Part shown: in pieces, positions 23,038 to 62,880 of the stretch
Position numbering within the stretch: the stretch's first letter is position 1
Layout of the letters: the number at the start of each line of letters is the position of its first letter
Source of the DNA: Candidatus Omnitrophota bacterium
GTDB lineage: Bacteria; Omnitrophota; Gorgyraeia; Zapsychrales; Fredricksoniimonadaceae
Assembly: GCA_044225175.1 (NCBI GenBank)
Contig: JBGAJA010000006.1
Span: forward strand, 65,049-129,048
Direction: 5' to 3'
DNA length: 64,000 nucleotides
Notes under the pieces: generated by a model
What the model saw: the letters and a program-made list of their open reading frames with translations, nothing else
Told to the model about the DNA's origin: nothing
The model's database searches: none
Position numbers and translations under genes: made by a program

Positions 23038-23042
23038 TGATA

Positions 23043-25682: not shown

Positions 25683-27113
25683 ATGATCTTATTTTCCAAG
25701 ATTCACTCCTTCTATCTTTTTCATGCGCAGTTAATTGAACGAATTTTGTTCTTAATTGCTATTCTTAGCGCTGTTTTAATTCGTTATTCCTTCCTCAATC
25801 GAGGATTCTTTTATGATGAACTCTTTCTCGTAACTCACTTTCTTCAATCGCCTGAGCTTTTCGGTCCTTCTTTTAAAGATTATACAACTGCTAATCATAT
25901 GGGTTATACGATCTGTTCGTATGTGACAAGTCATTTATTTGGCATGAAAGAATGGGCTGTACGTTTGCCAGCCTTATGTTTTGATATAGCAAGTATGTGT
26001 GTCTTTGGGTATTGGACAAGAAAGTATTTTGGAAGAGCAGTTGCATCGGTTGGAATGATTTTATTTGTTTTTTCTCCAGCAAGTATTATTTGGAGCTCCT
26101 CTGCACGCGGATACTCGGCAATGATATTCTTCACATTAGCTTCCAGTATTCTTTATTTTCGTCTGCTACAACAAACTTCCAAAAGAACGCTGTTTTTGTT
26201 CATAGTTACAAACCTTATTGGGTTTTCCTTCCATTTGTATTTTGCTTTTATCGAGATTGTTCAATTGTTTCATTTGGTATTGTTAGCTTTTGCCAGTAGT
26301 CGATTAAACATATCTAGAAAGAATTTGGTTAATTTATCGATAGGGATGGGGATTACATGCATCTTATCGGTTCTTATCTATGCTCCGATCATGTTCAAGT
26401 TTCTCATGCAGCAAACAGGTGTACATGGGGAATTGATTCCATATTTTCCTTTGAAAGTATTTACAGATTTAATATCTGTCTCATGGTTGCCCTTAGGATT
26501 AATTTGTTTGATTGTGATGATTGTTGGATTTAAATATTTTAATCCCAGATTAGTGTATTGGCCCGTCTATGTTTTATTGTTATTCTTGATTCCATTGCCC
26601 ATTTGGTTGTCGAAACCATGGTTTTTATATCCTCGTTTCTTTTCTTTCTTATTGCCTTTTATTTTTCTTGGACTTGCCAATGGGATGGTCATGATTCCCA
26701 GGCTTTTTCCAAAGCCTTTTCAAATCATCCTTGGACTATGTATGGTGGCAGTCCTATGTGCGATTCTGTGGTCTTGGAAGAACAACTCTGCGAATGTCGT
26801 CCAAGAATTCAATAGCACTTTTAAAGAATCTGTGGCCTTTGCTGAAGGTATATCCAATAGTCAGGTGCGCTTTTGTTCATTTGGGAGTGAAGATCAGTTT
26901 TTTCAATATTATTCCAAACGGCCAGTCATTCAATTTAAGACTTTTGAAGAATTTTTATTATTTTATAATCAGAAGATAGATTCTTTGTGTTTTGCTATTA
27001 TGGGACCACCGATGAATGATGAACATAAGAAGATTTTTCTCTTTATGCTCACGCATTCCCAATTTAAATCTTTTGATAAAATTAATGTGTTTCATATAGG
27101 TGAAAGGCTGTAG
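25683..27113 (+). CDS. GT-C membrane glycosyltransferase, GT39/GT83 (PMT/ArnT)-like
   Basis: First-loop acidic motif …FFYDELFLV…, then …WAVRLPALCFDIASMCVFGYWTRKYFGRAVASVGMILFVFSPASIIWSSSARGYSAM…. This is typical of the ArnT/PMT 4-amino-arabinose or mannosyl transferase fold. Confidence 0.5.
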   Translation: MILFSKIHSFYLFHAQLIERILFLIAILSAVLIRYSFLNRGFFYDELFLVTHFLQSPELFGPSFKDYTTANHMGYTICSYVTSHLFGMKEWAVRLPALCFDIASMCVFGYWTRKYFGRAVASVGMILFVFSPASIIWSSSARGYSAMIFFTLASSILYFRLLQQTSKRTLFLFIVTNLIGFSFHLYFAFIEIVQLFHLVLLAFASSRLNISRKNLVNLSIGMGITCILSVLIYAPIMFKFLMQQTGVHGELIPYFPLKVFTDLISVSWLPLGLICLIVMIVGFKYFNPRLVYWPVYVLLLFLIPLPIWLSKPWFLYPRFFSFLLPFIFLGLANGMVMIPRLFPKPFQIILGLCMVAVLCAILWSWKNNSANVVQEFNSTFKESVAFAEGISNSQVRFCSFGSEDQFFQYYSKRPVIQFKTFEEFLLFYNQKIDSLCFAIMGPPMNDEHKKIFLFMLTHSQFKSFDKINVFHIGERL

Positions 27114-49677: not shown

Positions 49678-52600
49678 ATGAAGCAAAATACTTTTAACCC
49701 CAAAAAAGTAGCATATCAAAACCTGCGTAAAACAATTACAAGCGTTGTTCTCACAGCTTTTTTTTGTACTTCCTTACATAATCCATCTTATGCACAATCT
49801 GTATCGGGCAATATGCCTTGGATGCCAAAGCCAGGGGTAATTGTCCGTTTAAGCCCTGAATTTAAACCAGCACATTTACTGGGAATGACCATTCATGGGG
49901 ACAATGCTTTAAAGTTTGATTTTATTGTTCATCGTGGTGATAACCCATTAACTGAAGATCAGAAAAAAGAAGAATATAATAAGCTTATTAAATATTTTCT
50001 AGCTTCTTTGACTATTCCTGATGAAAACCAATGGGTCAACCTTTCGCCTTATGAAAAGAACCGCATTATTAAGGAAGACTTTGGAACAACAGAAATGGGA
50101 CGTGATCTTTTAGCCCAGGATTACGTGTTAAAACAAATCACATCCAGTCTTATTTATCCTGAAGATAATCTAGGAAAGAAGTTTTGGGATAAGGTGTATG
50201 ACCGTGCTTGGAAAGAATATGGCACAACAAATGTCCCTGTAAATACCTTTAATAAGGTTTGGATTATTCCTGATGAAGCAGTTGTTTATGAAAGCGGTAA
50301 TACTGCTTATGTGCTTCGTAATCATTTGAAGGTCATGTTGGAAGAAGATTATGTCTCTTTAGATAAACATAGTGGAATTACAAATAATAAACCTACTGTT
50401 AGCAATACCAATAAAGCACATAGCCTGGCTTCACAAATTATTAAGGACATTGTTCTCCCTGAGTTAGAAAGGGAAGTTAATGAAGGGCAGAATTTTGCTA
50501 ATCTTCGTCAGATTTATAGCGGGATGATTTTGGCTACATGGTACAAGAAAGCATTGAAAGAAAGTTTATTAGGACAAATTTATGTTAATCGATCTAAGGT
50601 CAAAGGAGTTGAACAGAACCCTCAAAATAATCAAGTCATTTATCAGCAATACTTAAAAGCCTTTAAGAAAGGTGTATTTAACTACATTAAAGAAGATGTA
50701 GACAAATACACCAAGGAGAGTATTCCTCGTAAATATTTCTCTGGTGGAACAATCAACGATTATGCCCAGGTCACAAAATTCTTAAAAAAAGGAGATTCTT
50801 TGCCAGAGAACATTGATTTTGCTTCTCTTGCAACAGGGATTGCTGACCTTGCGACTGTGGTAATTGATGGTTCAGGTAATAATGCAAGTTTTAATGGTCG
50901 CGATTCAGTAGTGGAAGTTCTTAGGTTATTACAAGGAGGAGGCCTTTCTAATGCAGAAAGAAATGGGTGGCAGGCGTTGGGAAGGTTGGCGGGAACAGAA
51001 GCTTTGGAAGTCAAAAGAAGAATTATGGATGCTGAGTTAATCGTGTATGACAGAGAAGGAAGGGCTATTAGAAGAACATTCTTTAACGGAAACTCTTTGA
51101 TAGACCAAGTTCAAATTTTATTTAAGGAAGGTCAACAGGTTCTTTTTCTTGATGAATCTTCTGAAGTATCAAGTAGCAGTCAAATGGTTGCTGTCCCTTC
51201 GGTCAGGGGAAATTCAAAAGGAATTATCCTTTCTGAGACATCTAGAGCCCCTGAAATAGCGCGTAAATTAGGAGCTCTGTTTTCTTCATTGATCTACATA
51301 ACAGAAACTAAACCTACAATAACGTATCTTGGTTTGTATCCTTCATTAGATAGAGGTTCCAAAGATTTTCAAAAAGGGCCAAATGCCATTGATAAAAATA
51401 ATAAAGATAAGACTACCTCTGCGTATAAACTTAATGGGTTTACAACTCTACCGGTAGTTCTGAGTCAAAGTATGAATGAAAGGGTATTAGAAAGAAGCAT
51501 AGGTACTTTTAGTAATCGAAAAAGAGGAATGGTAGGTGTTGCTGTTGAGTCGTTTGAAAAAATACCTAATGGGTTACTTGCACTTTCAAATGAAAGATTT
51601 TATTTAGTCTCTATTTATGTGCAAGTTCCTTCTAGTATCCCTCACGTGGATACTGGCAGAAATTCTGCGATAACTGTTAACTTTTATATGACAAAATCTG
51701 AGCTAGATCAATTTACGAGTTTGATTCAACAGTCACCTGAAGCATTGATTTATGCGTTTCAAGAAAATTCAGACGTAAATCTTAGTAATATTTTTAAAGG
51801 GATGATGGGAGATGCGCTGAAAGAGGGTATAGGGTTCTATGGTCCTACTAATTTAGGTCAATATCCGTTGGAAGGTCTTATATCTTCTGACGAGTTAAGG
51901 TCTATTATTTCAGCTGATGCGGCATTGATTGCGGGGAAAGATAAGGCCCTTTTAGAAAAAGTATTCCTAGGAACTCTTCAGATGTTGAGTAAATCTGGAC
52001 TATTGGGAGATGAGGTAGCACGAGAAAGAGTATATGAACGTTTATTTCCTCATTTAAAACCTTTGAGAGGTATGATTTCTACTGCATTGACAAACAAACC
52101 TACTATTGAGAGTGTACAAGAAATACCAGAATTTGTGGCTGCAGTTAACAATTTATTTACACCAGAGCAGGTAGCGCGTGATTTTACTAGTTTTTCAAAA
52201 GATGCACGAGATATTAGTAATCTAAAACAAGTTTTTATTAATGATTTCAATCAATTCTTAAGATTAATCAAAAACTTTTCTGAGACTAGAGTTGTATTAA
52301 GTGCTAATAAAATCATTCTTTCAGATGTTCTTTCGGATTTATATGATCTCTCCAATAAAATAATCCAGAATAAGACTTCTGTTGTAGAGTTGCAAAAAGC
52401 AGTTGAGGCTCTTCTTTTAAAACAACCGGAAGCCGCTCGACCATCCTTAAGGGAGATTTTATTAAAAGAAGTAAAAAGAATGCATAGTCAATTGAAGCTA
52501 AAAGAAGTCGTGTTGGAGAAAAGCAATCAAGTATTAGCAGATTTAAAAGCAAGAGGGGTGATTGGTGAGCTAGATGCAGTTAATGCAAGGGAGAAATTGA

Positions 52601-53736
52601 TAAATCTAAGAGTACTTGTTGAACAGAATCCTAAAGTGGGAGCTATTGCACAGATCGGAGAACTCAAGAATCGAATCGCTGCATTATTTAATGGAGATGG
52701 TAATGTTTTGCCTGGAGTGTCTAAAGCTGAGATTGCCGCTCTTCGGACATTTTTAGAAGAGGATTTAAGTAGTTATTTAGAGTTAATTACAGCTTTTTCT
52801 AAAACGCGAGAAGCTTTAAAAGGTGATCCAGATTCTTGGGATGCTATTATCTTTGATTTATACGCTATTGATAGGCATGATTTGGAGAGAATCTTTGCTA
52901 AGGTGTTATCAAAAGTTCCTGAAATTATTAAACTAATAGGAACTCCAAATCAAGAGGCAGGGAGAGAGGCTTTAACTGCTGATTTAAATGCTATCAAAGA
53001 TAATGCCATGTCATCGATAAATAGGGTAAACACACCTGGAGTTAATCGATTTGGGGATTCAATAGTTCCTCCCGTGGAAAGAAGTTCAAACACAGGAGCA
53101 TACGAGAGAGGGACTCTTCCTCAAGATCAAAGGGGGGCATTTCGACTACCATCTCAACAAGAAGACCCACAGCCTCTACCTCGTCAAGAAGATAGTACTA
53201 CGATAACTCTATCTCAAGGTGCTACATTTAATATCTTTCCTGATGAAGCAAAGTTTAACCGATTGGTTATCTCAAATTCTTCTGATTCTAAAATAATAGA
53301 GTTCACTCTGGGGGAGATTCAGAATCTTAAAGAGGGGAATTATAATGGATTTACTGTTACTAGAAATGAAGGAGAGTTGCCTAAAGTAGGAGAAATAACT
53401 GCACCGTGGAAACTCCAAGAAATGTCGAGACGGTCTGTGACAATAACTGCCACTAGAGATTTAAGAATTACAACTTTTACGAATCCAGCCATGCTTAATA
53501 GTACATCGGATAAACAAGATAAACTTGGTGGTATCGATTTAAATTCAGCCAATTTGAATTTACAAATTAAACGTGATGGTAAAGGTGTTCCATTACCTTT
53601 GAATCAACAGGACATGGCGCAACTCATGCAAATTCAAGGCTTTATTCCCAAAATCATTGAAATCACGCCTGCTGCCGGTCTTCCAATCTTCAGTGAACTC
53701 AAACAAAAGCTAAAACCTGCAAGTAGCTTATCGTAA
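49678..53736 (+). CDS. Giant secreted protein (1352 aa) that is a paralog of the 36957 gene. The N- and C-terminal modules are shared; the ~900-aa middle is non-repetitive and unrelated.
   Basis: Signal peptide …NPSYAQS. The N-terminal region aligns with the first giant protein. The C-terminus …GGIDLNSANLNL…GFIPKIIEITP… matches the first protein's C-terminus. Confidence 0.65.
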   Translation: MKQNTFNPKKVAYQNLRKTITSVVLTAFFCTSLHNPSYAQSVSGNMPWMPKPGVIVRLSPEFKPAHLLGMTIHGDNALKFDFIVHRGDNPLTEDQKKEEYNKLIKYFLASLTIPDENQWVNLSPYEKNRIIKEDFGTTEMGRDLLAQDYVLKQITSSLIYPEDNLGKKFWDKVYDRAWKEYGTTNVPVNTFNKVWIIPDEAVVYESGNTAYVLRNHLKVMLEEDYVSLDKHSGITNNKPTVSNTNKAHSLASQIIKDIVLPELEREVNEGQNFANLRQIYSGMILATWYKKALKESLLGQIYVNRSKVKGVEQNPQNNQVIYQQYLKAFKKGVFNYIKEDVDKYTKESIPRKYFSGGTINDYAQVTKFLKKGDSLPENIDFASLATGIADLATVVIDGSGNNASFNGRDSVVEVLRLLQGGGLSNAERNGWQALGRLAGTEALEVKRRIMDAELIVYDREGRAIRRTFFNGNSLIDQVQILFKEGQQVLFLDESSEVSSSSQMVAVPSVRGNSKGIILSETSRAPEIARKLGALFSSLIYITETKPTITYLGLYPSLDRGSKDFQKGPNAIDKNNKDKTTSAYKLNGFTTLPVVLSQSMNERVLERSIGTFSNRKRGMVGVAVESFEKIPNGLLALSNERFYLVSIYVQVPSSIPHVDTGRNSAITVNFYMTKSELDQFTSLIQQSPEALIYAFQENSDVNLSNIFKGMMGDALKEGIGFYGPTNLGQYPLEGLISSDELRSIISADAALIAGKDKALLEKVFLGTLQMLSKSGLLGDEVARERVYERLFPHLKPLRGMISTALTNKPTIESVQEIPEFVAAVNNLFTPEQVARDFTSFSKDARDISNLKQVFINDFNQFLRLIKNFSETRVVLSANKIILSDVLSDLYDLSNKIIQNKTSVVELQKAVEALLLKQPEAARPSLREILLKEVKRMHSQLKLKEVVLEKSNQVLADLKARGVIGELDAVNAREKLINLRVLVEQNPKVGAIAQIGELKNRIAALFNGDGNVLPGVSKAEIAALRTFLEEDLSSYLELITAFSKTREALKGDPDSWDAIIFDLYAIDRHDLERIFAKVLSKVPEIIKLIGTPNQEAGREALTADLNAIKDNAMSSINRVNTPGVNRFGDSIVPPVERSSNTGAYERGTLPQDQRGAFRLPSQQEDPQPLPRQEDSTTITLSQGATFNIFPDEAKFNRLVISNSSDSKIIEFTLGEIQNLKEGNYNGFTVTRNEGELPKVGEITAPWKLQEMSRRSVTITATRDLRITTFTNPAMLNSTSDKQDKLGGIDLNSANLNLQIKRDGKGVPLPLNQQDMAQLMQIQGFIPKIIEITPAAGLPIFSELKQKLKPASSLS

Positions 53737-53801: not shown

Positions 53802-54194
53802 ATGATTAAAGGTAAGTACAAAATCGTCTATGATGGGCGATGCAGTTTTTGTGTTAGTTGTATCCGTGATTTAAAGATTATGGATTGGTTTAAGAAATGT
53901 GAATTTGCGGACTATCATGCCGCATCAGATTTAAAAGAATTGCATTCCACTTTAGATCCGAAGGTGGCTGCCAGTCAAATTCACTTGATAACCCCTGAAG
54001 GAAAGATCTATGGAGGATTTTTTGCTATCCGACAAACTGCATGGCTGATGCCTCTCATGTATCCCTTATTGCTTGTTATGTATTTACCTTTTGCTAATAA
54101 GATTGGGTCAGCTATGTATCGTTGGATTGCTTTAAACCGTTATATTCTTCATTCCCATCAAGGCTGCAAAGATAATCACTGTTTTAGACCATGA
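53802..54194 (+). CDS. DCC-family thiol-disulfide oxidoreductase (DUF393)
   Basis: N-terminal IVYDGRCSFCVSCIRDL (CxxC) and a length of 130 aa. Confidence 0.6.
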   Translation: MIKGKYKIVYDGRCSFCVSCIRDLKIMDWFKKCEFADYHAASDLKELHSTLDPKVAASQIHLITPEGKIYGGFFAIRQTAWLMPLMYPLLLVMYLPFANKIGSAMYRWIALNRYILHSHQGCKDNHCFRP

Positions 54195-55303
54195 TTACAC
54201 ATAAAGATATCCCCAAATTTATTTGGATCCACACCATATTAATCATGGGTATTGGATTGATTGCCCTTTATAGTGCTTCTTTTAATAACTCACGCGTAGG
54301 ACAGAATGTGTTTTATGACCAACTTGTTTGTGCCTTTCTTGGGCTTATGGTCATGATGTTTTTGGCCTATTTTGATTATCGCCGGTTCTTTGATATTGCC
54401 TATGTCATTTATGGTTTCAGTCTTATTTTTCTTTTCTTTGTATTGTTTTTGGGACGTGAAGCGCTTGGTGCTACTCGTTGGTTTTCTATAGGAGGATTTA
54501 GTTTTCAGCCCTCTGAATTCAGTAAATTGGCGGTTATTTTATTTCTTGGAAGGTATTTAAGTTTGCGCAGGCCAAAACTATCTTTTAATTTTTCAGGAAA
54601 TTTAAGAGGTGTGTGGGATGATTTAGTCTTTCCTTTGATCATTATAGGTATTTCAGTGCTTTTGGTTTTTAAACAGCCTGATTTGGGTACGGCAATTTTG
54701 ATATTTGGAATTTTTATAGTGATGATTTATGCGAGCGGCATTGCTCATAAGCTTTTTCTTGGTTTTATAATTACTATTCTAGCGTTAGCGCCTTTTGTCT
54801 GGCATTTCTTGAAACCATATCAGAAGACTCGATTAACTGTGTTTTTAGATCCGAGTCATGATCCAACGGGAGCGGGTTATACAATCACTCAGTCCAAAAT
54901 CGCTGTTGGTTCTGGACAGCTTTGGGGAAAGGGATGGCTTTCTGGAACTCAAAATCAATTGAATTTTCTTCCAGAAAGACACACAGATTTTATTTTTTCA
55001 GTTATTGGAGAGGAGTGGGGGCTGATGGGAGCCTTATTCTTAGTATATTGTTACATCATGATTATTTATTGCGGATTTACGATAGCTAATTTTAACAAAG
55101 ATCGTTTTGGCCAACTGGTAACTATCGGAATTGTAGCGATATTAGCAATGCAGGTAGTGATTAATATTGCTATGGTAATTGGCTTATGTCCTGTTGTAGG
55201 AATTACCCTTCCATTTATTAGTTATGGACGCACTTCATTTATTGTTTTTGCTTTAATGATTGGCTTTTTGTTGAGCTTGAGCCGAAAAAGATCCATATTT
55301 TAA
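54191..55303 (+). CDS. SEDS-family peptidoglycan glycosyltransferase (FtsW/RodA/SpoVE)
   Basis: About 10 TM segments, with a conserved …SEFSKLAVILFLG… region and a …PERHTDFIFSVIGEEWG… motif. Confidence 0.8.
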   Translation: MITHKDIPKFIWIHTILIMGIGLIALYSASFNNSRVGQNVFYDQLVCAFLGLMVMMFLAYFDYRRFFDIAYVIYGFSLIFLFFVLFLGREALGATRWFSIGGFSFQPSEFSKLAVILFLGRYLSLRRPKLSFNFSGNLRGVWDDLVFPLIIIGISVLLVFKQPDLGTAILIFGIFIVMIYASGIAHKLFLGFIITILALAPFVWHFLKPYQKTRLTVFLDPSHDPTGAGYTITQSKIAVGSGQLWGKGWLSGTQNQLNFLPERHTDFIFSVIGEEWGLMGALFLVYCYIMIIYCGFTIANFNKDRFGQLVTIGIVAILAMQVVINIAMVIGLCPVVGITLPFISYGRTSFIVFALMIGFLLSLSRKRSIF

Positions 55304-55376: not shown

Positions 55377-55826
55377 ATGAAACATTTTCGTAAAATTATC
55401 AATAAGCAACTTGGGGAGATTTTAGTCGAACGGGGAATTATTACCCGTATGCAGCTGGAACAAGCTTTAAAAATTCAAAAAGAACAGAATATTCTTTTTG
55501 GAGAAGCTTTAGTGAGTTTGCAATATACGACTGAAGAAAATATTGTTCAAGCGCTCACAGCTCAGTACGGTTTCCCATACCTGCCTTTATCTAATTATGA
55601 AATTTCCCCTGAAGTCTTATCGGTTATTCCTGCCAACATTTGTAATAAGTATTGTCTTATTCCTATTGATAAAATTGGTAAGAGTTTGACTTTGGCAATG
55701 GCTAATCCTTTAAATTTGAGTGCTTTGGAAGATGTTGAATTGGTTACAAATTGTATGGTCCAAGCCTTTGTCAGCACAGCGACAGATATTAAATCAGCCA
55801 TCAAGCGATACTATGAATCAAGTTAA
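55377..55826 (+). CDS. Standalone T2SSE_N/MshEN-domain protein (putative c-di-GMP receptor)
   Basis: 149 aa consisting only of the GspE/PilB N-terminal domain. QLGEILVERGIITRMQLEQALKIQ matches the 24-residue MshEN motif RLGxxLLxxGLLxxxxLxxxLxxQ at every defined position except R1 to Q. Confidence 0.6.
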   Translation: MKHFRKIINKQLGEILVERGIITRMQLEQALKIQKEQNILFGEALVSLQYTTEENIVQALTAQYGFPYLPLSNYEISPEVLSVIPANICNKYCLIPIDKIGKSLTLAMANPLNLSALEDVELVTNCMVQAFVSTATDIKSAIKRYYESS

Positions 55827-55855
55827 TGGTTTTATAGTGCCATTAATACTTAATT

Positions 55856-57574
55856 ATGCCCCCTCTTAACCAGCGTCTTATAGATATTTTTCAAAGAGAC
55901 AATCTCATCCCTTCCTCTGATATTGAACGTGCTGTCAAAGAGCATCAAAGTTCAGGACAAGAATTTAGTAGCATCCTCCTTAAGCTTAAGCTTATTTCAG
56001 AAGACCAATTAGCCATGTCCATTAGCGAAGCGCTTGATATCCCTATCATAAATTTATCTGTATTTAAGATTGATCCTACCTTGATCAAGCTGGTTCCTCG
56101 TTCCATGGCCAACAAATATCATTTGATTCCATTATCTCGTATCGGAGATCAATTGACGCTGGCAATTAAAGATCCTTTAAATATTTTTGCCATTGATAAT
56201 GTGAGGGCTGCGACCGGAATGACAGTCAATGTGGTCATGGCCAGATCTAAAGATATTCAAATGGCTATCAATAAGCTTTATACGGAAGAATCAACAGATA
56301 CTCTCGATGATATTTTAAAGGACATCAAGGAGTCTGAAGATCTAGAACTGGTCAAAGAGGGCCCTGCAAGTTCAAATAACAAAGAAGTGGAAGATCTCTC
56401 CAAAGAAGCTCCCATTATTACTTTAACAAATACGATTATTCTCCAGGCTATCTCTGCCAAGGCGAGTGATATTTTTATAGAGCCCATGGAAAATGCTCTT
56501 AGGATCAGGTATCGGGTGGATGGTTTTATTCGAGAGATGGATCGTATGTCTAAAGTCCTTCATTTTTCAATCATTTCTCGTATTAAGGTCATTTCTAATC
56601 TGGATATTGCAGAACATCGTCTGCCTCAGGATGGCCGATTTCGCATCAGTGATTCTAAGGGGGATGAAATTGATTTTCGTGTCAGTGTTCTTCCGACTGC
56701 ATTGGGCGAAAAGATTGTTATGAGAGTTTTGGATAAGAACCTAGACATGTTAGATTTAGATAAATTAGGATTTGAAGAGGATTCGTTGGTGAGGCTAAAA
56801 GAAGTTTGCACAAGACCACATGGATTGATCTTGGCTTGCGGTCCGACGGGAAGTGGAAAGACAACGACTCTATACTCCATACTTAAAGCTATTGATGATC
56901 CGGGAAAAAATATTATTACCGTTGAAGATCCTGTTGAGTTTCAGATGAAAGGTTTTAATCAGGTCAATATCCGTTCTGAGGTCGGATTGACATTTCCTTC
57001 AGCGTTACGGTCTATCCTTCGGCAAGATCCTGATGTAATTTTAATCGGAGAAATTCGAGATTCTGAGACGTTGGATATTGCTGTCAAAGCAGCTTTGACA
57101 GGCCACTTGGTTGTCTCTTCTTTACACACAACAACTGCGGCCGGTTCCATTACTCGTATGATTAACATGGGTGTTGAACCTTTTCTGGTATGTTCTTCTG
57201 TTGTTGCCATTGTAGCTCAGCGTCTCATTCGTCGTTTGTGTATTAAATGCCGCCAGTCCTATACTTTATCTCCTGAAGGTATTAAAGAGTTTCAAGTCAA
57301 CGAACTTATGCCTAATCACAACATGGTCTTTTATAAGCCTAAGGGATGTGATCATTGTTTTAATACGGGATACAAAGGGCGGGTTGGAATTACAGAAACA
57401 TTGGTGCTGACTGCTGAGATTAGAGAGTTGGTTTTAGCTCGTGCCTCTGAGATGGATATTAAGAAAAGTGCTAGAAAAAGTGGTATGAAAACAATGAGAG
57501 AAGATGCTGTTATGAAAGCTTGTCGGGGATTTACGAGTTTAGAAGAAGTGGTTCGTTTAACCATGTATGATTAA
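55856..57574 (+). CDS. pilB: Type IV pilus assembly ATPase PilB (GspE family), copy 1
   Basis: N-terminal MshEN/T2SSE_N domains, Walker A GPTGSGKTT, Asp-box, Walker B, His-box and a tetracysteine motif (CIKC…CDHC). Confidence 0.85.
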   Translation: MPPLNQRLIDIFQRDNLIPSSDIERAVKEHQSSGQEFSSILLKLKLISEDQLAMSISEALDIPIINLSVFKIDPTLIKLVPRSMANKYHLIPLSRIGDQLTLAIKDPLNIFAIDNVRAATGMTVNVVMARSKDIQMAINKLYTEESTDTLDDILKDIKESEDLELVKEGPASSNNKEVEDLSKEAPIITLTNTIILQAISAKASDIFIEPMENALRIRYRVDGFIREMDRMSKVLHFSIISRIKVISNLDIAEHRLPQDGRFRISDSKGDEIDFRVSVLPTALGEKIVMRVLDKNLDMLDLDKLGFEEDSLVRLKEVCTRPHGLILACGPTGSGKTTTLYSILKAIDDPGKNIITVEDPVEFQMKGFNQVNIRSEVGLTFPSALRSILRQDPDVILIGEIRDSETLDIAVKAALTGHLVVSSLHTTTAAGSITRMINMGVEPFLVCSSVVAIVAQRLIRRLCIKCRQSYTLSPEGIKEFQVNELMPNHNMVFYKPKGCDHCFNTGYKGRVGITETLVLTAEIRELVLARASEMDIKKSARKSGMKTMREDAVMKACRGFTSLEEVVRLTMYD

Positions 57575-57586
57575 CATATTTAACTT

Positions 57587-59290
57587 ATGGAATCGACTAG
57601 AGATAAAATATTCAATGCGCTTCGTCAATTGCCTAATGTTAATCAGGCAGATTTAAATGTATTGATGGTGGCGGGACGAGAGAAAGAATCGAGCCTTACT
57701 AAAGCTTTGATTAAGCAAGGCATTATTTCCGAGAAGGATTTGCTGATTTTGCTTATTCGTGAACTTCGAATTCCTTCCATTGATCTAGGTAAATATCGTT
57801 TAGAAGAACGATTAAAAGAATATATCCCTGAGAAAACTGCTAAACAATACAATATTGTTCCTCTTTCTATATTTGGTGAAACGCTTACGATTGCTGTATC
57901 TGATCCTTTGAATGTTTTTCTTGCTGATGATTTAAGAAATATCACCGGTAAGACTATAGACATTGTTCTTGCTAGCGACTCCCAAATCTCACGTGCTATA
58001 GACCAGTTTTATGCTTCCGCTTCTGAAACTTTAGCTAAAGTGACTGAAAATATGCCAGAAGCAAGTTTAGATATTATTGATGAAAGTGGTGATCAATTCA
58101 ATTTTGGTTCTGAGGTAGGGGAACAAGCGCCTGTTATTCGTATGGTCAATTTGATTATTAAGGAAGCTATTCGTCAGAGGGCTTCAGATATTCATATGGA
58201 ACCAACAGAGACAGGGATGAGAGTTAGATACCGTATTGATGGGATTTTGCAAGACATTATGACGGTTCCCTTTGAAAGTCAAAATGCTGTTGTTGTTCGT
58301 ATTAAAATCATGTCTCGTCTAGACATTACTTCATTTCAAACCCCTCAAGACGGTCGTTTTAAGATGCGTATGCCAAGCGGGGAGATTGATTTTCGTATTT
58401 CTTTACTTCCGACGACCCATGGACAAAAAGTAGTCATGAGAGTCTTAGATAAAGCAAATCTTTCTGTGGGTTTGAATAAATTAGGTTTTTCAAAAAGGTC
58501 TATGGAGATATTAGAAGAAGCCATTTATAAACCATTTGGAATGATTCTCATTACAGGGCCTACGGGAAGTGGAAAGTCAACGACCCTTTATTCATTGATT
58601 AATAAATTGAATACTCCGGAACGAAACATAATTACTGTCGAGGAGCCTGTTGAATATTTGATTGAAGGTTTAACGCAGATTGAAGTCAGACAAGACATTG
58701 GTTTGACCTTTGCTACTGGATTACGAGCTATTCTTCGTCAGTCTCCAGATATTGTCATGGTGGGAGAAATTCGCGATAAAGAAACAGCGGATATTTCGAT
58801 CAAGGCTTCTTTAACAGGACAAATGGTCCTGTCTACCTTACACACGAATGATGCGGCAGGAGCATTGACTCGTCTTGTTGATATAGGATTAGAACCATTT
58901 CTTGTTGCCTCCAGTTTGGTTGTCGTATGTGCTCAAAGGCTTTGTCGCCGGCTTTGTCCTCATTGTAAGGTCCCCGTTGAGGTTCCGGAGTCTGCCTTAA
59001 GAAGAATCAAAGATAAAGTTAAACCCGGGACAGTTTTTTATGAAGGCAAGGGATGTGATCGATGTCGTCATAAGGGATATTTAGGTCGTATGGGGGTCAC
59101 GGAGATTTTGCAAATAGATGATCATATTCGTGACATGTTGCTGCGAGGAGAATCATCAGATGCTATTTCACATTATGCGCAAGAAAAACAAGGGATGAAA
59201 TTGCTTTTCGATGATGGCCTTGATAAAATGTTTCAAGGTGAGACGACATTATCAGAAGTTATGCGTATTGCTTCAGCAGGATCAGAGTAA
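57587..59290 (+). CDS. Type IV pilus assembly ATPase PilB/GspE family, copy 2
   Basis: Same domain set: GPTGSGKST, and CPHC…CDRC. Confidence 0.85.
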   Translation: MESTRDKIFNALRQLPNVNQADLNVLMVAGREKESSLTKALIKQGIISEKDLLILLIRELRIPSIDLGKYRLEERLKEYIPEKTAKQYNIVPLSIFGETLTIAVSDPLNVFLADDLRNITGKTIDIVLASDSQISRAIDQFYASASETLAKVTENMPEASLDIIDESGDQFNFGSEVGEQAPVIRMVNLIIKEAIRQRASDIHMEPTETGMRVRYRIDGILQDIMTVPFESQNAVVVRIKIMSRLDITSFQTPQDGRFKMRMPSGEIDFRISLLPTTHGQKVVMRVLDKANLSVGLNKLGFSKRSMEILEEAIYKPFGMILITGPTGSGKSTTLYSLINKLNTPERNIITVEEPVEYLIEGLTQIEVRQDIGLTFATGLRAILRQSPDIVMVGEIRDKETADISIKASLTGQMVLSTLHTNDAAGALTRLVDIGLEPFLVASSLVVVCAQRLCRRLCPHCKVPVEVPESALRRIKDKVKPGTVFYEGKGCDRCRHKGYLGRMGVTEILQIDDHIRDMLLRGESSDAISHYAQEKQGMKLLFDDGLDKMFQGETTLSEVMRIASAGSE

Positions 59291-59300
59291 TGGAGGGAAA

Positions 59301-59726
59301 ATGGATCAGAAGTTGATGATAGGGGAGATTTTAATTAAGCGTAAGCTTATCACACAAGAGCAGCTTGATGAGGCGCTTGATATACAGAAAAAAGAAAAAG
59401 GTTTTATAGGTGAAATTTTAGTTAAGTTGGGGTATCTTGAAGAGCAAGATATTGTAGTAGCTTTGGTTGTCCAATGTGATTTGCCCTACATTGCCATAAA
59501 TAAGTACGACGTTATGCCAGAGATTCTCAAAATGATCCCTAAGGATGTGGCGATGAGAGAGAGAATTGTTCCATTGGACTGTATTGGAAATATTTTGAGT
59601 GTGGTGATGATGAGTCCTTGCAGTGAAGAAAAGAAAGTTTATTTGGAAGAAATAACAAAGTGTAAAGTGGCTACTTTTATTTCAACTAAGACTGAAATTG
59701 ATCAAGCAATTCAACGTTTGTATTAA
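59301..59726 (+). CDS. Standalone T2SSE_N/MshEN-like domain protein, second copy
   Basis: 141 aa from the ATG at 59301, with a GGAGGG RBS. MIGEILIKRKLITQEQLDEALDIQ matches the MshEN motif except that the central Gly is Lys. Confidence 0.55.
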   Translation: MDQKLMIGEILIKRKLITQEQLDEALDIQKKEKGFIGEILVKLGYLEEQDIVVALVVQCDLPYIAINKYDVMPEILKMIPKDVAMRERIVPLDCIGNILSVVMMSPCSEEKKVYLEEITKCKVATFISTKTEIDQAIQRLY

Positions 59727-59743: not shown

Positions 59744-60961
59744 ATGCCAACATACAAATATGTAGCTCGTGATCAAGAAGGTAAAAATGTTTCAGGTAAA
59801 ATTGCTGCTGATAATGAGACTTTAATTGTTGCGGAACTTCGTAAACGAAATTTAATTATTGTTACAATTGACGAGGAAAGATCTTCTTCTGCTCAAACTG
59901 CTACCCCTAAGTTTAAGGGGGGCAAGAAAATGAAGTCTGAAGACATTGTTATTTTTACCCGTCAATTCGCCACAATGGTGGATGCGGGCATTCCCATTTT
60001 ACAATGTCTGGAAGCATTAGGGGAGCAAGCTTCAAATCCTTCGTTTAAATCAACAATCAGCGTTATTCGAGAAGATATTCAGCTAGGAAGTAGCCTTTCT
60101 TCAGCATTTGCAAAGCATCCTCAGGTATTTGATCAATTGTACATCAATATGTTAAGGGTTGGGGAAACGGGGGGTATTCTAAGTACGATTCTTGATCGTG
60201 TTGCATTGTATTTAGAAAAATCTGAGAAATTGAAACAGAAAGTTCAAGCGGCTATGATCTATCCTGCAGTTGTAGTAGGAATGGCTTTAGCGATCACAAC
60301 ACTACTTCTTGTTAAGGTTGTTCCAACATTTGCCCAGATTTACGATTCTTTAGGTCAGAAATTGCCTGCTATGACGCAAGTGTTAATTGATACTAGTAAT
60401 TTTCTGCAGCATCAGTTTATTTTAATCATTGGTATCATTGTTGCGGTGGTTGTTGGATTTAACAGATACCGTAAAACTAAACAAGGAAGGTACCAAACAG
60501 ATTCAATTGCATTACAATTGCCTATTTTTGGAGATTTAATTTGTAAAGTCTCGGTTAGTCGTTTTAGCCGAACTTTCTCTACGTTATCTCAAAGTGGGGT
60601 TGCGATTTTGGAAACATTAGATATTGTTGGCAAAACTTGTGGAAATAGTGTGATTGAGGCTTTAGTTGATGAGGTTAAGCTGAGTGTGCGTGAAGGTGAA
60701 AGTATTGCTATTCCTTTGTCTAAAAGTAAAGTTTTCCCCCCCATGGTTACGCGTATGATTTCAATTGGAGAAAAATCAGGTCAACTTGAAAAAATGCTTT
60801 CTAAAGTTGCTGAATTCTATGATGATCAAGTTGACACTGCGGTTGAAGGTTTGACTAAGTTAATTGAGCCTTTGATCATCGCTTTCTTGGGAATCGTGGT
60901 TGGTTTTATTGTCGTTGCTTTATTTATGCCAATTTTAAATTTAACTGCAAACATGCGTTAA
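59744..60961 (+). CDS. pilC: Type IV pilus inner-membrane platform protein PilC (GspF family)
   Basis: 405 aa with two GspF repeats and three TM segments. Confidence 0.85.
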   Translation: MPTYKYVARDQEGKNVSGKIAADNETLIVAELRKRNLIIVTIDEERSSSAQTATPKFKGGKKMKSEDIVIFTRQFATMVDAGIPILQCLEALGEQASNPSFKSTISVIREDIQLGSSLSSAFAKHPQVFDQLYINMLRVGETGGILSTILDRVALYLEKSEKLKQKVQAAMIYPAVVVGMALAITTLLLVKVVPTFAQIYDSLGQKLPAMTQVLIDTSNFLQHQFILIIGIIVAVVVGFNRYRKTKQGRYQTDSIALQLPIFGDLICKVSVSRFSRTFSTLSQSGVAILETLDIVGKTCGNSVIEALVDEVKLSVREGESIAIPLSKSKVFPPMVTRMISIGEKSGQLEKMLSKVAEFYDDQVDTAVEGLTKLIEPLIIAFLGIVVGFIVVALFMPILNLTANMR

Positions 60962-60967
60962 TCATTT

Positions 60968-61963
60968 ATGAAGCCCGTGAAGATATTTCAGTTTTTCTTA
61001 ACAGTATTCATTTCTTTTGTTTGCTTTCCGGCAAAAGCAGAGGAAGCTTTCTCGGAGAATTTAGCTCAGAGTTTGGTTGAGCTGAAGAATAATGTGGAGC
61101 AATTAACTGTCTCCAATCAAACTCTGGCGCTAAAAAATGATCAACTCAAAGCAGATTTAAAAGGCATTCAAATTACTTCCCAGAAATTGTTGCAAGAAAA
61201 TAGTCGTCTTGAAGCGGATAAAGCTAAATTACAGGAATCAACCCCTCTTAAAGCTGAGCAAATTGAGCGAGAAAATAAAAACATTGCTGATTTGGATCAA
61301 CAAATCGCCTCTTTGGCTCAGCAAACTAAAGATTTTCAAAATACTTTGGAAAGTAAGGAAAAAGAAGAAAAAGATTTGTCTGGGCAAATGCAACAATTAT
61401 CTCAACCGAAGGAAAAGGTTTCAGAAGACCTGCCTGTTAATTTATCAAAAGTTTTATTACAGAAGCAAAAAGAAAAACTTGCCATACTTAAATTGATTTC
61501 TGAGAGTGAGAACCGTCAGCAAATGTTGCAGGAGAAATTCTTAGATTCTAAGAAAGTCGTTCCTGGAGAAGGTAGTCTTGATAATGATAAAACGCCTAAA
61601 AAGGAATACCTTAATGCTCAGATTGTCCAATTGCAAGATGAAATTGGGCGTCTCAACGCGTTTTTAAGTGCTGATTCAAAAAGTGGTTGGAGTGAACAGC
61701 AAATTCAAGAGTTAGAGGGAAGTGTTAATAAGTTAGAGAGAAATAGCGAGGAATTAAGAGCATTAATTAAAAGAATGCAATTTAAGGCCCAACAATTAGA
61801 CAGCAAAAAAGATCAAAATTATGAACATGCTAAGATTCAATCACAGCTTGACCAACTTAAACGCGACAGGCGTAGTTTAAAAATTGATTTGGCTGAACTC
61901 CAGCAGCAAATGGTTATTTTAGACAAAAGAAAATCTTCTCTGGAAGCGCTTTCTAGAAAATAG
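60968..61963 (+). CDS. Secreted coiled-coil protein (Q/K/E/L-rich), hypothetical
   Basis: It has a signal peptide (…FVCFPAKA) followed by about 300 aa of heptad-like coiled coil. It lies between pilC and the pilin gene. Confidence 0.4.
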   Translation: MKPVKIFQFFLTVFISFVCFPAKAEEAFSENLAQSLVELKNNVEQLTVSNQTLALKNDQLKADLKGIQITSQKLLQENSRLEADKAKLQESTPLKAEQIERENKNIADLDQQIASLAQQTKDFQNTLESKEKEEKDLSGQMQQLSQPKEKVSEDLPVNLSKVLLQKQKEKLAILKLISESENRQQMLQEKFLDSKKVVPGEGSLDNDKTPKKEYLNAQIVQLQDEIGRLNAFLSADSKSGWSEQQIQELEGSVNKLERNSEELRALIKRMQFKAQQLDSKKDQNYEHAKIQSQLDQLKRDRRSLKIDLAELQQQMVILDKRKSSLEALSRK

Positions 61964-62418: not shown

Positions 62419-62820
62419 ATGAGAAAATTCACATCTAAATCTTCAGGGTTCACATTAGTGGAAATTATGATCGTTGTTGCGATCATCGCTTTATTAGCGG
62501 CAATCGCAATTCCAAACTTGCTTCGTGCTAAGATGTCAGCTAATGACGCTTTAGCTAAAGCAACCATTCGTTCTATGTCAACTGCAGCTGAAAGTTTTGC
62601 TACAGCCCAACAAGGTAATTATCCAGCTGATGAAGCATCATTAACAAATGCTACTCCACCATATGCTAATAAAGCATATTGTACTCAAACCATTTCGGGT
62701 TATACGTATACTTGCCCAACAATGGATACAAGTGGTTATACTTTTGTGGCAACACCTGTAACTACTGGGACATCAGGTTCAACAACATACACAGTTACAA
62801 CAGGTGGTGTTTTGAACTAA
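62419..62820 (+). CDS. Type IV pilin (prepilin with N-terminal cleavage/methylation motif)
   Basis: MRKFTSKSSG|FTLVEIMIVVAIIALLAAIAIPNLL gives G-1, F+1 and E+5. The C-terminal half is Thr/Ser/Gly-rich. Confidence 0.75.
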   Translation: MRKFTSKSSGFTLVEIMIVVAIIALLAAIAIPNLLRAKMSANDALAKATIRSMSTAAESFATAQQGNYPADEASLTNATPPYANKAYCTQTISGYTYTCPTMDTSGYTFVATPVTTGTSGSTTYTVTTGGVLN

Positions 62821-62845: not shown

Positions 62846-62880
62846 AAAGACCTCGCTAGTATTAGCGAGGTCTTTTTTTA
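62846..62880. terminator. Rho-independent terminator (13-bp stem AAAGACCTCGCTA/TAGCGAGGTCTTT, then a T-run) after the pilin gene. It may be bidirectional with the convergent DUF2079 gene.
   Basis: Read directly from the sequence. A T7 tract follows on the plus strand, and the stop codon of the minus-strand gene lies within it. Confidence 0.55.

Follow-up and report, generated by a model that had tools for sequence, protein, structure and literature searches.

In the bacterium studied, and throughout its phylum Candidatus Omnitrophota, the two assembly motors of a type IV pilus operon have lost sensor residues that one or two separate small proteins keep, and detachable subunits are therefore the probable sensors of c-di-GMP. 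We somewhat favour a reading in which an MshEN sensor domain, now detached, works in trans on two PilB ATPases that form an obligate pair. The stand-alone proteins sM1 and, where present, sM2 would bind c-di-GMP and dock on the motor, the docking being suggested by one fused homolog and by gene order. PilB1 is the candidate docking partner of sM1, which would provide it, in trans, with one more N-terminal GSPII domain. The presumed effect of docking is to license or tune pilus assembly on a single PilC platform. Seen as a whole, this would be an (MshEN)n-T2SSE ATPase, Thermus PilF being one example, in 'split' form.

The motor module and its two small genes

The window, meaning the whole 64 kb stretch of DNA that was analysed, comes from a Candidatus Omnitrophota MAG. 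Its gene cluster is the motor module of an Omnitrophota type IVa pilus, with genes for a coiled-coil protein and a pilin downstream of it. On the + strand, the module begins with sM1 (149 aa; 55377–55826), a stand-alone MshEN-domain protein consisting of an MshEN_N bundle of four helices together with a T2SSE_N1 subdomain. Two full-length PilB-type ATPases with degenerate N-terminal MshEN domains follow, PilB1 (572 aa; 55856–57574) and PilB2 (567 aa; 57587–59290). A second stand-alone MshEN-domain protein, sM2 (141 aa; 59301–59726), precedes the platform protein PilC (59744–60961). An earlier, sequence-only reading had given this order and these sizes, and both were confirmed. PilC matches T2SSF (216 bits, two repeats) and the PilC and GspF models (∼416–421 bits). 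It is single-copy in the cluster and comes after PilB2 or sM2 in all related loci that reach that far.

The coiled-coil gene (60968–61963, + strand) starts 6 nt past PilC, and gaps between genes are 6–29 nt from sM1 through to this gene. Its product has an N-terminal hydrophobic segment, belongs to no Pfam family and gives only weak matches to SMC-type coiled coils; homologs occupy the same place downstream of PilC in most related loci. The type IV pilin (62419–62820, + strand) carries a prepilin N-methylation motif (N_methyl, 33 bits), has PilA and GspG-type matches and occurs in one to three copies per related locus. A terminator-like hairpin with a 13-bp stem and a T-run (62846–62875, + strand) ends the cluster. 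No GGDEF, EAL, HD-GYP or PilZ protein is encoded in the window.

Pfam MshEN scores above its gathering score in sM1 (69 bits), PilB1 (77 bits), PilB2 and sM2 (48 bits), which bears out the assignment of the small proteins to this family. The mechanical ORF for sM2 spans 59211–59726; we place its start at the ATG at 59301 because a GGAGGG Shine-Dalgarno sequence precedes that codon and orthologs are 139–164 aa long (n = 43).

Both small ORFs are homologous to ATPase N-termini and adjoin ATPase genes, as might be seen if frameshifts or assembly errors had cut them from larger genes. The chance of this is negligible. The adjacent ATPases are complete, each with an MshEN domain of its own, and sM2 has its own Shine-Dalgarno sequence. 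The two small proteins share 40% identity, compared with 22–29% to either ATPase N-terminus. sM1 is found in at least 542 species genomes and is 147–157 aa long in 80 of 80 independent ones. Separate metagenomes hold 2678 homologs of sM1 (the best 120 of the 2678 are all 146–157 aa) and 487 of sM2 (about 140–152 aa). The test for frameshift fragments proposed with the sequence-only reading thus came out against them on homolog counts and constant lengths, and we rejected fragments of ATPase genes on the conservation of length across species genomes. sM1 and sM2 are genuine genes. sM2 is present in 43 of 60 complete loci and has been lost repeatedly among related loci; it is therefore dispensable.

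Two PilB-type motors

By their sequences, PilB1 and PilB2 qualify as catalytically intact PilB-type assembly motors. They match Pfam T2SSE at 445 and 437 bits and the TIGR02538 PilB model at 628 and 599 bits, compared with 442 and 462 bits for TfpB; on the pilT_fam model they reach 182 and 192 bits, both below the cut-off. Geobacter PilB is the best PDB match of both (526 and 519 bits). The two ATPases are 42% identical to each other, and they lie adjacent and have co-diverged across the phylum. Among 70 PilB1 and 64 PilB2 orthologs, no variation occurs in the residues of Walker A, the Asp box, Walker B and the tetracysteine motif, or in the LHT histidine of the His box. The Walker A/B motifs, His boxes and tetracysteine motifs of both ATPases had been described as intact, which holds except in the His box of PilB2. 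Its first histidine is a clade-specific glutamine in all PilB2 orthologs (GQ instead of GH); this Gln412 is invariant, and the position is His in 20/20 PilB1 proteins and 19/20 outgroups. Two separate pilus systems, once suggested for the tandem, are unlikely given the sole PilC and two ATPases that sit side by side and co-diverge.

Predicted c-di-GMP residues in the small proteins and the motors

AF2 models suggest that sM1 and sM2 each form a whole MshEN domain standing on its own (pLDDT 91.2 and 91.9), and their sequences keep the predicted c-di-GMP residues. In Foldseek searches, the sM1 model was closest to the GSPII-A domain of PilF (TM 0.87), with c-di-GMP-bound MshEN (5HTL) at TM 0.70; the latter was the best match of the sM2 model (TM 0.84). 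PDB entries 7LKM–7LKO were among the fold matches of both models, and sM1 matches each of the three PilF GSPII domains. The double c-di-GMP motif occupies 53 residues in each protein: residues 11–63 of sM1 (55407–55565, + strand; QLGEILVERGIITRMQLEQALKIQ, spacer KEQNI, LFGEALVSLQYTTEENIVQALTAQ) and residues 6–58 of sM2 (59316–59474, + strand; MIGEILIKRKLITQEQLDEALDIQ, spacer KKEKG, FIGEILVKLGYLEEQDIVVALVVQ). The second half-motif of each protein had been left out of the sequence-only reading.

NCBIfam NF053729 (c-di-GMP_motif), a 53-residue model with a cut-off of 38 bits, is passed by sM1 (57.6 bits, E = 8e-16) and sM2 (60.4 bits, E = 1e-16) and by 65 of 65 sM1-family members tested. PilB1 fails it at 24 bits and PilB2 gives no match. 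Against the 22 positions of the relaxed published motif, sM1 fits 18 and sM2 19; shuffled N-termini fit 12 on average and 16 at most.

The critical position-3 glycine divides the four families along the same line. It is kept in motifs I and II of 81/81 and 72/81 sM1 orthologs and of 42/44 and 36/44 sM2 orthologs, versus 0/76 and 2/76 for PilB1 and 0/67 and 6/67 for PilB2, and this split between small proteins and ATPases holds across 80 species of the phylum. In an independent metagenome sample, both glycines were kept in 0/8 PilB1 and 0/9 PilB2 proteins, versus 21/71 other PilB-like ATPases. In Vibrio cholerae MshE, G11L made binding undetectable and G40I lowered affinity 72-fold (PMC5013675). 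As judged from these residues, the ATPases' own MshEN domains appear to lack what is needed to hold c-di-GMP. Their degenerate N-terminal motifs had previously gone unnoticed. Gln24 is likewise retained in the small proteins, in 79/81 (motif I) and 72/81 (motif II) sM1 orthologs and 42/44 and 35/44 sM2 orthologs.

The position-1 arginine is missing from both half-motifs of both small proteins. Motif I has Gln in sM1 (Gln or His in orthologs) and Met in sM2 (Leu in most orthologs); motif II has Leu in sM1 and Phe in sM2. The sM1 motif had been called essentially perfect, which is overstated because of this missing arginine. For sM2, a match save for the central glycine had been reported: that glycine is indeed absent, but so is the arginine. 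Altering the equivalent Arg9 of MshE changed binding less than fivefold (PMC5013675).

Relatives: gene order, a fusion and c-di-GMP genes

The order RodA, sM1, PilB1, PilB2, (sM2), PilC recurs in 80 species genomes. An unbiased search seeded with PilB2 found an sM1-like ORF ahead of 8 of 8 informative PilB1–PilB2 tandems. One related metagenome contig encodes a fused PilB1, a PilB2-like protein and PilC. In the fused homolog (P0139, 765 aa), an sM1-like MshEN is joined to a degenerate PilB1_N-like MshEN and a T2SSE domain. The first domain matches sM1 best (119 bits) and the second the PilB1 N-terminus (99 bits), and the core branches beside the PilB1 clade.

Genes related to c-di-GMP recur in the cluster among relatives. 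A (REC-)HD-GYP gene sits in the sM2 slot of L076, L079, L080, L082 and L083, and in L035 the stretch from PilB2 to sM2 contains REC-GGDEF(GGEEF) and GGDEF-AAA-HEAT genes. In 24 of 69 loci the gene immediately upstream of sM1 is a HAMP-GAF-GGDEF(degenerate) one, frequently with an overlap into the sM1 start; these upstream GGDEF proteins of relatives have degenerate active sites. Taken with the motif-model split, the glycine split and the fusion, the repeated HD-GYP/GGDEF insertion argues for the trans-acting c-di-GMP sensor or adaptor layer that the sequence-only reading had put forward.

Alternative explanations

The small proteins could instead be c-di-GMP-independent structural adaptors, 'landing pads' or extra N1-ring subunits that join the PilB1/PilB2 motor to PilM, PilC or others. 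We judge this rather unlikely, yet the strongest of the alternatives. The closest fold to the sM1 model, whose alpha-1 is N-terminally extended (residues 2–18, low confidence), is GSPII-A of Thermus PilF, a non-binding domain for which a structural adaptor role has been proposed (PMC12002112). QYGFPYLPL, the stretch conserved best, and the surface of MshEN_C both lie outside the nucleotide site. The absence of position-1 Arg from all half-motifs and of any c-di-GMP gene from the window would also suit an adaptor. Motif conservation, moreover, is not sufficient for binding: PilF GSPII-A does not bind even with the consensus restored (PMC12002112). Pure scaffolding, however, would not need the selective retention of Gly3, the hydrophobic triad and Gln24, which the small proteins keep and both ATPases have lost, and this counts against it. 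The ligand-bound MshEN is the best fit of the sM2 model, and HD-GYP and GGDEF genes have been inserted repeatedly in the cluster. A role as decoys is a good deal less probable. Here the free N1/MshEN would compete with the N-terminal domains of the ATPases themselves for a docking site on the platform (a PilM/GspL-like partner or PilC), with assembly braked until c-di-GMP or a change in expression gives release. Both small proteins do have a complete N1 subdomain, MshEN_C, to which GspL binds in type II secretion, and PDB 2BH1 and 4PHT are among their fold matches. But an sM1-like domain is covalently joined to the ATPase in the fused homolog, which is easier to reconcile with a co-operating subunit than with a competitor, and every genome has sM1 29 nt upstream of the ATPases and co-transcribed with them.

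A different question is whether PilB2 took over the role of PilT, so that one paralog extends and the other retracts, rather than both co-operating in extension. This is improbable, if less so than decoys. PilB2 fills exactly the PilT slot of the pilB-pilT-pilC operons of other bacteria. As the sequence-only reading had noted, the window has no PilT-family ATPase: tblastn with the ATPase core turned up no additional PilB/PilT-like gene across the 64 kb, nor was a PilT-like gene present within 10 kb in 80 related loci, a survey confined to the window and these flanks. In Geobacter PilB, the inter-subunit Thr is contacted by the His-box residue at whose position PilB2 has its invariant Gln. The proposed division into extension and retraction keeps positional support only, since the tandem consists of two PilB-type ATPases and no PilT-type one. 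PilB2 has all the assembly-ATPase hallmarks: an N1/MshEN region, the tetracysteine Zn motif, a PilB score far above its PilT score, and solved relatives that point the same way (PilB ∼519 bits, PilT ∼139 bits). Two extension ATPases serving one pilus have a precedent in Acinetobacter baylyi PilB and TfpB (PMC11656802).

Comparison with known systems

Vibrio cholerae MshE, Myxococcus xanthus PilB and Clostridium perfringens PilB2 have the MshEN fold and the double motif of 53 residues in common with the window proteins. In MshE and its kin, too, c-di-GMP is linked to an ATPase of type IV pilus assembly (PMC5013675, PMC11656802). Their ATPases sense it with their own N-terminus, whereas here the intact motifs are on separate proteins of 141–149 aa and, compared with the MshE-type motif, lack position-1 Arg. 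Thermus thermophilus PilF likewise has several MshEN/GSPII domains per motor, with binding and non-binding copies mixed (PMC12002112), and (MshEN)2-4-T2SSE ATPases occur in Deinococcus-Thermus, Clostridia, Dictyoglomi and Nitrospiraceae (Wang 2016 Suppl. Table 4). A fused sM1–PilB1 homolog exists among relatives, whereas in the window a gene of its own encodes the extra domain. Binding of c-di-GMP in PilF falls to the ATPase-proximal domains, B and C, while here the ATPase-fused domain is degenerate and the detached one keeps the motif.

In the FimX-PilZ-PilB complex of Xanthomonas citri and Pseudomonas aeruginosa, a degenerate GGDEF-EAL protein serves as receptor, with PilZ as the bridge. For this system, experiments have shown PA4526 to be a non-binder (Wang 2016 supplement). 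The candidate receptor here is instead a paralog of the ATPase N-terminal domain, and the cluster has no PilZ or EAL protein. The two full-length assembly-type ATPases of A. baylyi also serve one pilus system (PMC11656802), but PilB1 and PilB2 are encoded by adjacent, phylum-wide co-diverged genes, both score as PilB rather than TfpB, and in the operon the second gene stands in place of PilT. Through its shared domain, P. aeruginosa PA3740 resembles sM1 and sM2 as a stand-alone MshEN-type protein without an ATPase. Its N1 subdomain is highly diverged, unlike theirs, and PMC5013675 does not describe it as a neighbour or partner of a PilB motor. PA3740 is among the experimentally tested c-di-GMP binders and is linked to swarming (PMC5013675).

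Organization and distribution of the motor cluster

The motor cluster encodes two intact assembly-type ATPases, whose sensor domains are degenerate, together with one or two free MshEN proteins that keep the sensor residues. It comprises seven genes, all on the + strand and separated by very short spacers. The first is sM1 (55377-55826, 149 aa), a small stand-alone MshEN protein by Pfam. It is followed by the full-length ATPases PilB1 (55856-57574, 572 aa) and PilB2 (57587-59290, 567 aa), both with MshEN and T2SSE domains, by a second small MshEN protein, sM2 (59301-59726, 141 aa), and by PilC (59744-60961, 405 aa, T2SSF), which is present in a single copy. The genes form a single, tightly packed operon. 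A coiled-coil protein (60968-61963, 331 aa) and a pilin with a Pfam N-methylation motif (62419-62820, 133 aa) complete the cluster; the pilin gene is separated from the gene before it by ∼450 nt and has a strong terminator-like hairpin on its 3′ side (62846-62875). The remaining genes of the window (GC ∼38%) are housekeeping genes, including TonB/ExbBD, FeoAB, LptFG, glycosyltransferases, the pyruvate dehydrogenase complex, glycogen enzymes and RodA. A search of the 64-kb window for GGDEF, EAL, HD-GYP, PilZ, PilT and PilMNOPQ genes found none, confirming the initial remark that it holds no PilT-family ATPase.

The order RodA, sM1, PilB1, PilB2, (sM2), PilC is kept in 80 species loci wherever the contig reaches, and PilB1 and PilB2 are adjacent wherever a contig covers both. 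Of 60 complete loci, 43 have the sM2 gene, which, when mapped on the PilB1+PilB2 tree, was lost several times independently. In a second, independent and unbiased metagenome sample, seeded with PilB2 patterns, an sM1-like ORF precedes 8/8 informative PilB1-PilB2 tandems, and clear stand-alone MshEN ORFs occur only beside such clusters, with two ambiguous overlapping MshEN ORFs at other loci. Tandem PilB-like ATPases also occur in more distant lineages (L124:4165-7572 and L153:4026-7701), where they have no stand-alone MshEN gene; the N-termini of the L153 pair are near-identical. In third-party assemblies, many genomes with this Omnitrophota-type cluster (L001, L005, L007 and others) bear the title ‘uncultured Planctomycetales bacterium’, which is probably a labelling issue, not true taxonomic spread.

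The small MshEN proteins are genuine genes

The sequence-only reading had named frameshift fragments of larger ATPase genes as one outcome that would undo it. At E ≤ 1e-3, sM1 has 2678 homologs, the best 120 of which are all 146-157 aa long with 68-100% identity, and its relatives are encoded in at least 542 species-representative genomes. Its length is 147-157 aa in 80/80 fetched loci; sM2 is 139-164 aa across 43 loci and has 487 homologs of similar size. The two share 40% identity, against 22-29% between either of them and the ATPase N-termini. Fragmentation is therefore ruled out by conserved length and independent recurrence, and the small ORFs are real genes. The mechanical ORF of sM2 begins at 59211 (59211-59726). 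A GGAGGG Shine-Dalgarno sequence precedes the ATG at 59301, and a length of 141 aa fits the ortholog lengths; both support 141 aa as the likely size of sM2 over the 162 aa apparently given in the public annotation of the genome (P0271).

Databases label proteins of the sM1/sM2 type ‘hypothetical protein’ or ‘type IV pilus assembly protein PilB’. Among the best 150 sM1-like cluster representatives, 54 are ≤200 aa and 23 are multi-MshEN ATPases. Other putative fusions occur in two sM1-like cluster representatives: in P0152 (454 aa), MshEN is joined to what by eye resembles a DnaA-type AAA+ module, and P0171 (723 aa) combines MshEN with a PilZ-like segment and a long, apparently extracellular region.

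The c-di-GMP motif is kept in the small proteins and lost from the ATPases

MshEN (Pfam PF05157, curated cut-off 23.1 bits) is the c-di-GMP receptor domain of Wang et al. 2016. All four proteins exceed the cut-off (sM1 69.2, PilB1 76.8, PilB2 81.1 and sM2 48.0 bits). The NCBIfam model NF053729 describes the 53-residue c-di-GMP module itself, a 24-residue motif repeated across a 5-residue spacer, with a cut-off of 38 bits. Both sM1 (57.6 bits) and sM2 (60.4 bits) lie above this value, PilB1 (24.0 bits) lies below it and PilB2 is unmatched. All 65 sM1-family members tested match NF053729 at E ≤ 0.001, and sM1 and sM2 both have a spacer of exactly 5 residues.

For residue counts, the published motif, two copies of RLGxx(L/V/I)(L/V/I)xxG(L/V/I)(L/V/I)xxxxLxxxLxxQ around a 5-residue spacer (PMC5013675), was placed on every ortholog. 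The position-3 glycine is found in motif I of 81/81 and motif II of 72/81 sM1 proteins, and in 42/44 and 36/44 sM2 proteins, respectively. The corresponding counts are 0/76 and 2/76 for PilB1 and 0/67 and 6/67 for PilB2. In the window, these glycines are G13 and G42 of sM1 and G8 and G37 of sM2, whereas the ATPases carry Ile/Ser (PilB1) and Phe/Thr (PilB2). Gln24 and the hydrophobic motif positions follow the same pattern of retention in the small proteins and loss in the ATPases. In the independent PilB2-seeded metagenome sample, both glycines were kept in 0/8 PilB1 and 0/9 PilB2 orthologs, compared with 21/71 other PilB-like ATPases. The backbone amides of the position-3 glycines touch guanine; in Vibrio cholerae MshE, G11L leaves no detectable binding and G40I weakens c-di-GMP binding 72-fold (PMC5013675).

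The motif of sM1 had been called essentially perfect, which overstates the match. The position-1 Arg, even when relaxed to R/K/P/N, is missing from all four half-motifs, being replaced by Gln and Leu in sM1 and by Met and Phe in sM2; orthologs carry Gln/His and Leu in sM1 and Leu and Phe/Leu in sM2. Alteration of the equivalent Arg9 in V. cholerae MshE shifts binding <5-fold (PMC5013675).

Predicted structures and a natural gene fusion

AlphaFold2 models of sM1 and sM2 (pLDDT 91.2 and 91.9) both show the full two-subdomain MshEN fold, defined as the four-helix bundle of MshEN_N plus the alpha/beta T2SSE_N1 subdomain. The sM2 model lies nearest to c-di-GMP-bound V. cholerae MshEN (5HTL; TM 0.84, rmsd 2.2 Å), followed by E-value by c-di-GMP-bound GSPII-B entries of PilF. 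The nearest structure to the sM1 model is Thermus PilF GSPII-A (TM 0.87) and only then 5HTL (TM 0.70), and its alpha-1 is extended and of low confidence. Because of these two features, the model makes c-di-GMP binding by sM1 no more than plausible. GSPII-A is itself a case in which sequence alone misleads on c-di-GMP binding (PMC12002112).

In one related metagenome contig (L081), the genes after that of a 765-aa protein (P0139) encode a PilB2-like ATPase and PilC. Of the two MshEN domains of P0139, the first is nearest to sM1, with both glycines intact, and the second is degenerate and nearest to the PilB1 N-terminus; the ATPase core of P0139 branches next to the PilB1 clade. By these sequence relationships, P0139 is a natural sM1-PilB1 gene fusion, which argues that sM1 and PilB1 co-operate physically.

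Recurrent c-di-GMP genes in related clusters

Genes of c-di-GMP metabolism or sensing are embedded recurrently in the clusters of relatives and provide an independent link to this second messenger. Regex matches to HD-GYP and GGDEF in related loci were confirmed with Pfam; EAL and PilZ regex screens of the same loci returned only obvious false positives. An HD-GYP-type phosphodiesterase gene occupies the PilB2-PilC slot, the usual place of sM2, in five loci (L076:4269-4895, L079:11789-12862, L080:5669-6736 and L082:11821-12861, all HD_5, and L083), and a receiver domain was confirmed in the L079 and L080 proteins. The interval between PilB2 and sM2 in L035 contains genes for a REC-GGDEF protein, whose GGEEF site is canonical, and for a GGDEF-AAA-HEAT protein. 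A HAMP-GAF-GGDEF gene lies directly upstream of sM1 in 24/69 loci (L027, L029, L031, L033-L036, L040, L042, L043, L045, L046, L048-L051, L054, L055, L061, L062, L064, L069, L073 and L079), often overlapping the sM1 start codon. It encodes a membrane protein of ∼475 aa, located between RodA and sM1, with a degenerate active site (GDHEF, AEHEF and similar) and without an RxxD I-site. For this protein, a role as sensor or scaffold is more likely than cyclase activity. The window's own lineage lacks the HD-GYP and GGDEF insertions.

An ancient pair of assembly ATPases

The T2SSE core of both ATPases (Walker A, Asp box, an atypical Walker B that bears the catalytic Glu, and Arg fingers) and the LHT histidine of the His box are invariant in 70 PilB1 and 64 PilB2 orthologs. 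All four Zn-motif cysteines are likewise kept (70/70 and 64/64), and MshEN lies at residues 60-146 in each protein. The N1/GSPII domain and the tetracysteine Zn motif are the marks that separate assembly ATPases from PilT. The Walker and tetracysteine motifs are thus intact, as first described; the same claim for the His boxes holds for PilB1 and for the LHT histidine of both, and fails at residue 412 of PilB2, where the first His is Gln (TGQMV...LHT) in 64/64 orthologs. This position is His in 20/20 PilB1 proteins and 19/20 outgroup PilBs. In Geobacter PilB, the equivalent residue, H413, sandwiches T411 at an inter-subunit nucleotide-sensing contact (PMC5424180).

PilB is the top NCBIfam model for both proteins (TIGR02538; PilB1 628.2, PilB2 598.7 bits), ahead of GspE (584 and 585) and TfpB (442 and 462). 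Both scores fall below the equivalog cut-off of 675.65, so that by profile the two would be classed as PilB-like, short of certified equivalogs. PilT/PilU was taken to mean a protein of ∼350 aa without N1 domain or Zn motif and with at least 319.1 bits to TIGR01420; PilB1 and PilB2 score 182 and 192, compared with ∼480 for genuine PilT elsewhere. The best solved relatives of both are Geobacter and Myxococcus PilB (∼490-526 bits), then Thermus PilF, then GspE, with PilT structures at only ∼84-139 bits. Profile scores and this ranking rule out either protein as PilT-like.

PilB1 and PilB2 share 42% identity overall, rising to 46% within the core. Each paralog forms a clade in 30/30 bootstraps with congruent internal topologies, and a joint exclusive clade appears in 0/30; from this we conclude that they are an old pair whose members diverged together across the phylum. 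The data give no support to a recent, lineage-specific tandem duplication: the joint clade is missing, and PilB1 and PilB2 are as distant from each other (46% core identity) as from the PilBs of other phyla.

Possible modes of control and of motor action

On balance, we infer that both sM1 and sM2 are c-di-GMP receptors that dock on the motor, with PilB1 as the docking site of sM1, and that they license or tune pilus assembly on the single PilC platform. In trans, they would be the functional equivalent of the additional GSPII domains of PilF-type ATPases. The proposal of a trans-acting c-di-GMP sensor layer in the sequence-only reading gains from the motif split, the sM1-PilB1 fusion and the embedded c-di-GMP genes, with binding and docking as its conjectural parts. 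The main rival account holds that sM1 and sM2 are ligand-independent adaptor subunits, much as PilF GSPII-A. The structural proximity of sM1 to that very domain speaks for it, and the retained glycines and recurrent c-di-GMP genes speak for ligand sensing; we regard the adaptor account as possible but rather unlikely. The cluster differs from both kinds of known system. ATPases of the (MshEN)n-T2SSE, or Thermus PilF, type carry at least two MshEN domains and the ATPase in one polypeptide, whereas the window encodes sM1 and PilB1 as individual ORFs that use different reading frames and are separated by 29 nt; only P0139 in L081 is a multi-MshEN ATPase of this kind. The FimX-PilZ-PilB system uses a PilZ adaptor and a GGDEF-EAL receptor, neither of which is among the window's 49 ORFs of at least 120 aa, where Pfam found no PilZ, EAL or GGDEF domain.

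How the two ATPases share their work can be approached from gene order and phylogeny. Two separate pilus systems, as once suggested, are unlikely with one PilC, adjacent ATPases and congruent trees. In the PilB2-seeded sample, other bacteria show the operon order pilB-pilT-pilC, with PilT at ∼480 bits (TIGR01420), and PilB2 therefore fills the PilT position. Between a split into extension and retraction and co-operation in extension, the latter is somewhat more likely. Such co-operation could be a division of labour between separate hexamers, as proposed for Acinetobacter baylyi PilB and TfpB (PMC11656802), or a hetero-hexamer. A bolder scheme would make PilB1-PilB2 one obligate heteromeric motor (e.g. 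an alternating 3+3 hexamer) with sM1 and sM2 as paralog-specific, detachable c-di-GMP-sensing subunits of the N1 ring; a single machine would then extend and retract in a lineage with no PilT next to its pilus genes, and c-di-GMP occupancy would set its direction or duty cycle. Strict adjacency, congruent phylogenies, the single PilC, the location of PilB2 in the PilT slot and the invariant His-to-Gln change at an inter-subunit nucleotide-sensing residue are all consistent with this scheme, which we nonetheless consider improbable.

Relation to known systems and significance

It is established that c-di-GMP controls pilus assembly through MshEN, that some ATPases carry several MshEN domains, and that PilBs which do not bind c-di-GMP can be served by receptors acting in trans, such as FimX-PilZ (PMC5013675, PMC8389850, PMC11656802). 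The domain architectures tabulated by Wang et al. include (MshEN)2-4-T2SSE fusions and PA3740, and no MshEN-only protein partnered with PilB (PMC5013675). A non-exhaustive search of the literature on stand-alone MshEN proteins and on PilB, PilT and c-di-GMP in Omnitrophota gave no description of this arrangement; the Omnitrophota literature searched notes type IVa pili without mention of PilB, PilT or c-di-GMP. Within the searchable literature, the pairing of free MshEN proteins with two PilBs is undescribed.

The main value of the cluster is as a natural ‘split’ system for MshEN control of PilB, combined with a clean obligate PilB pair. The contribution of MshEN/N1 to PilB control was called ‘poorly understood’ in a 2024 review, and c-di-GMP leaves ATPase rates unchanged in the single case cited there (PMC11656802). 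Here the sensor domain and the motor are naturally separate proteins, so that ligand binding, docking and motor output could each be measured on its own with purified parts. The obligate, co-diverging PilB1-PilB2 pair with its single PilC is likewise a test case for hetero-oligomers versus divided labour. Omnitrophota are ultra-small and probably host-dependent, and type IVa pili are thought to attach them to hosts (PMC10066038). A c-di-GMP-gated pilus motor, if true, would be a first concrete regulatory handle on this host-attachment lifestyle.

Other features of the region

The rodA gene (54191-55303) sits directly 5′ of the motor cluster in the window and in most related loci, and one related contig has a full mreB-mreC-(mreD)-pbp2-rodA set in this position (L082:3115-7947). 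Further upstream in the window, a protein of 1352 aa (49678-53736) has a hydrophobic segment at its N-terminus and no Pfam family; two related loci (L002 and L003) conserve parts of it ahead of their pilus clusters. In a 1740-aa ORF (36957-42179), a unit of 219 bp (73 aa) is repeated 6.9 times in tandem at 38844-40361, with 79% identity; the only Pfam matches of the ORF look spurious, and GC skew is locally strong (0.35). Three further ORFs (579, 585 and 476 aa) without a Pfam match (21298-24800 on the − strand and 25683-27113 on the + strand) lie inside a region rich in glycosyltransferases and methyltransferases.
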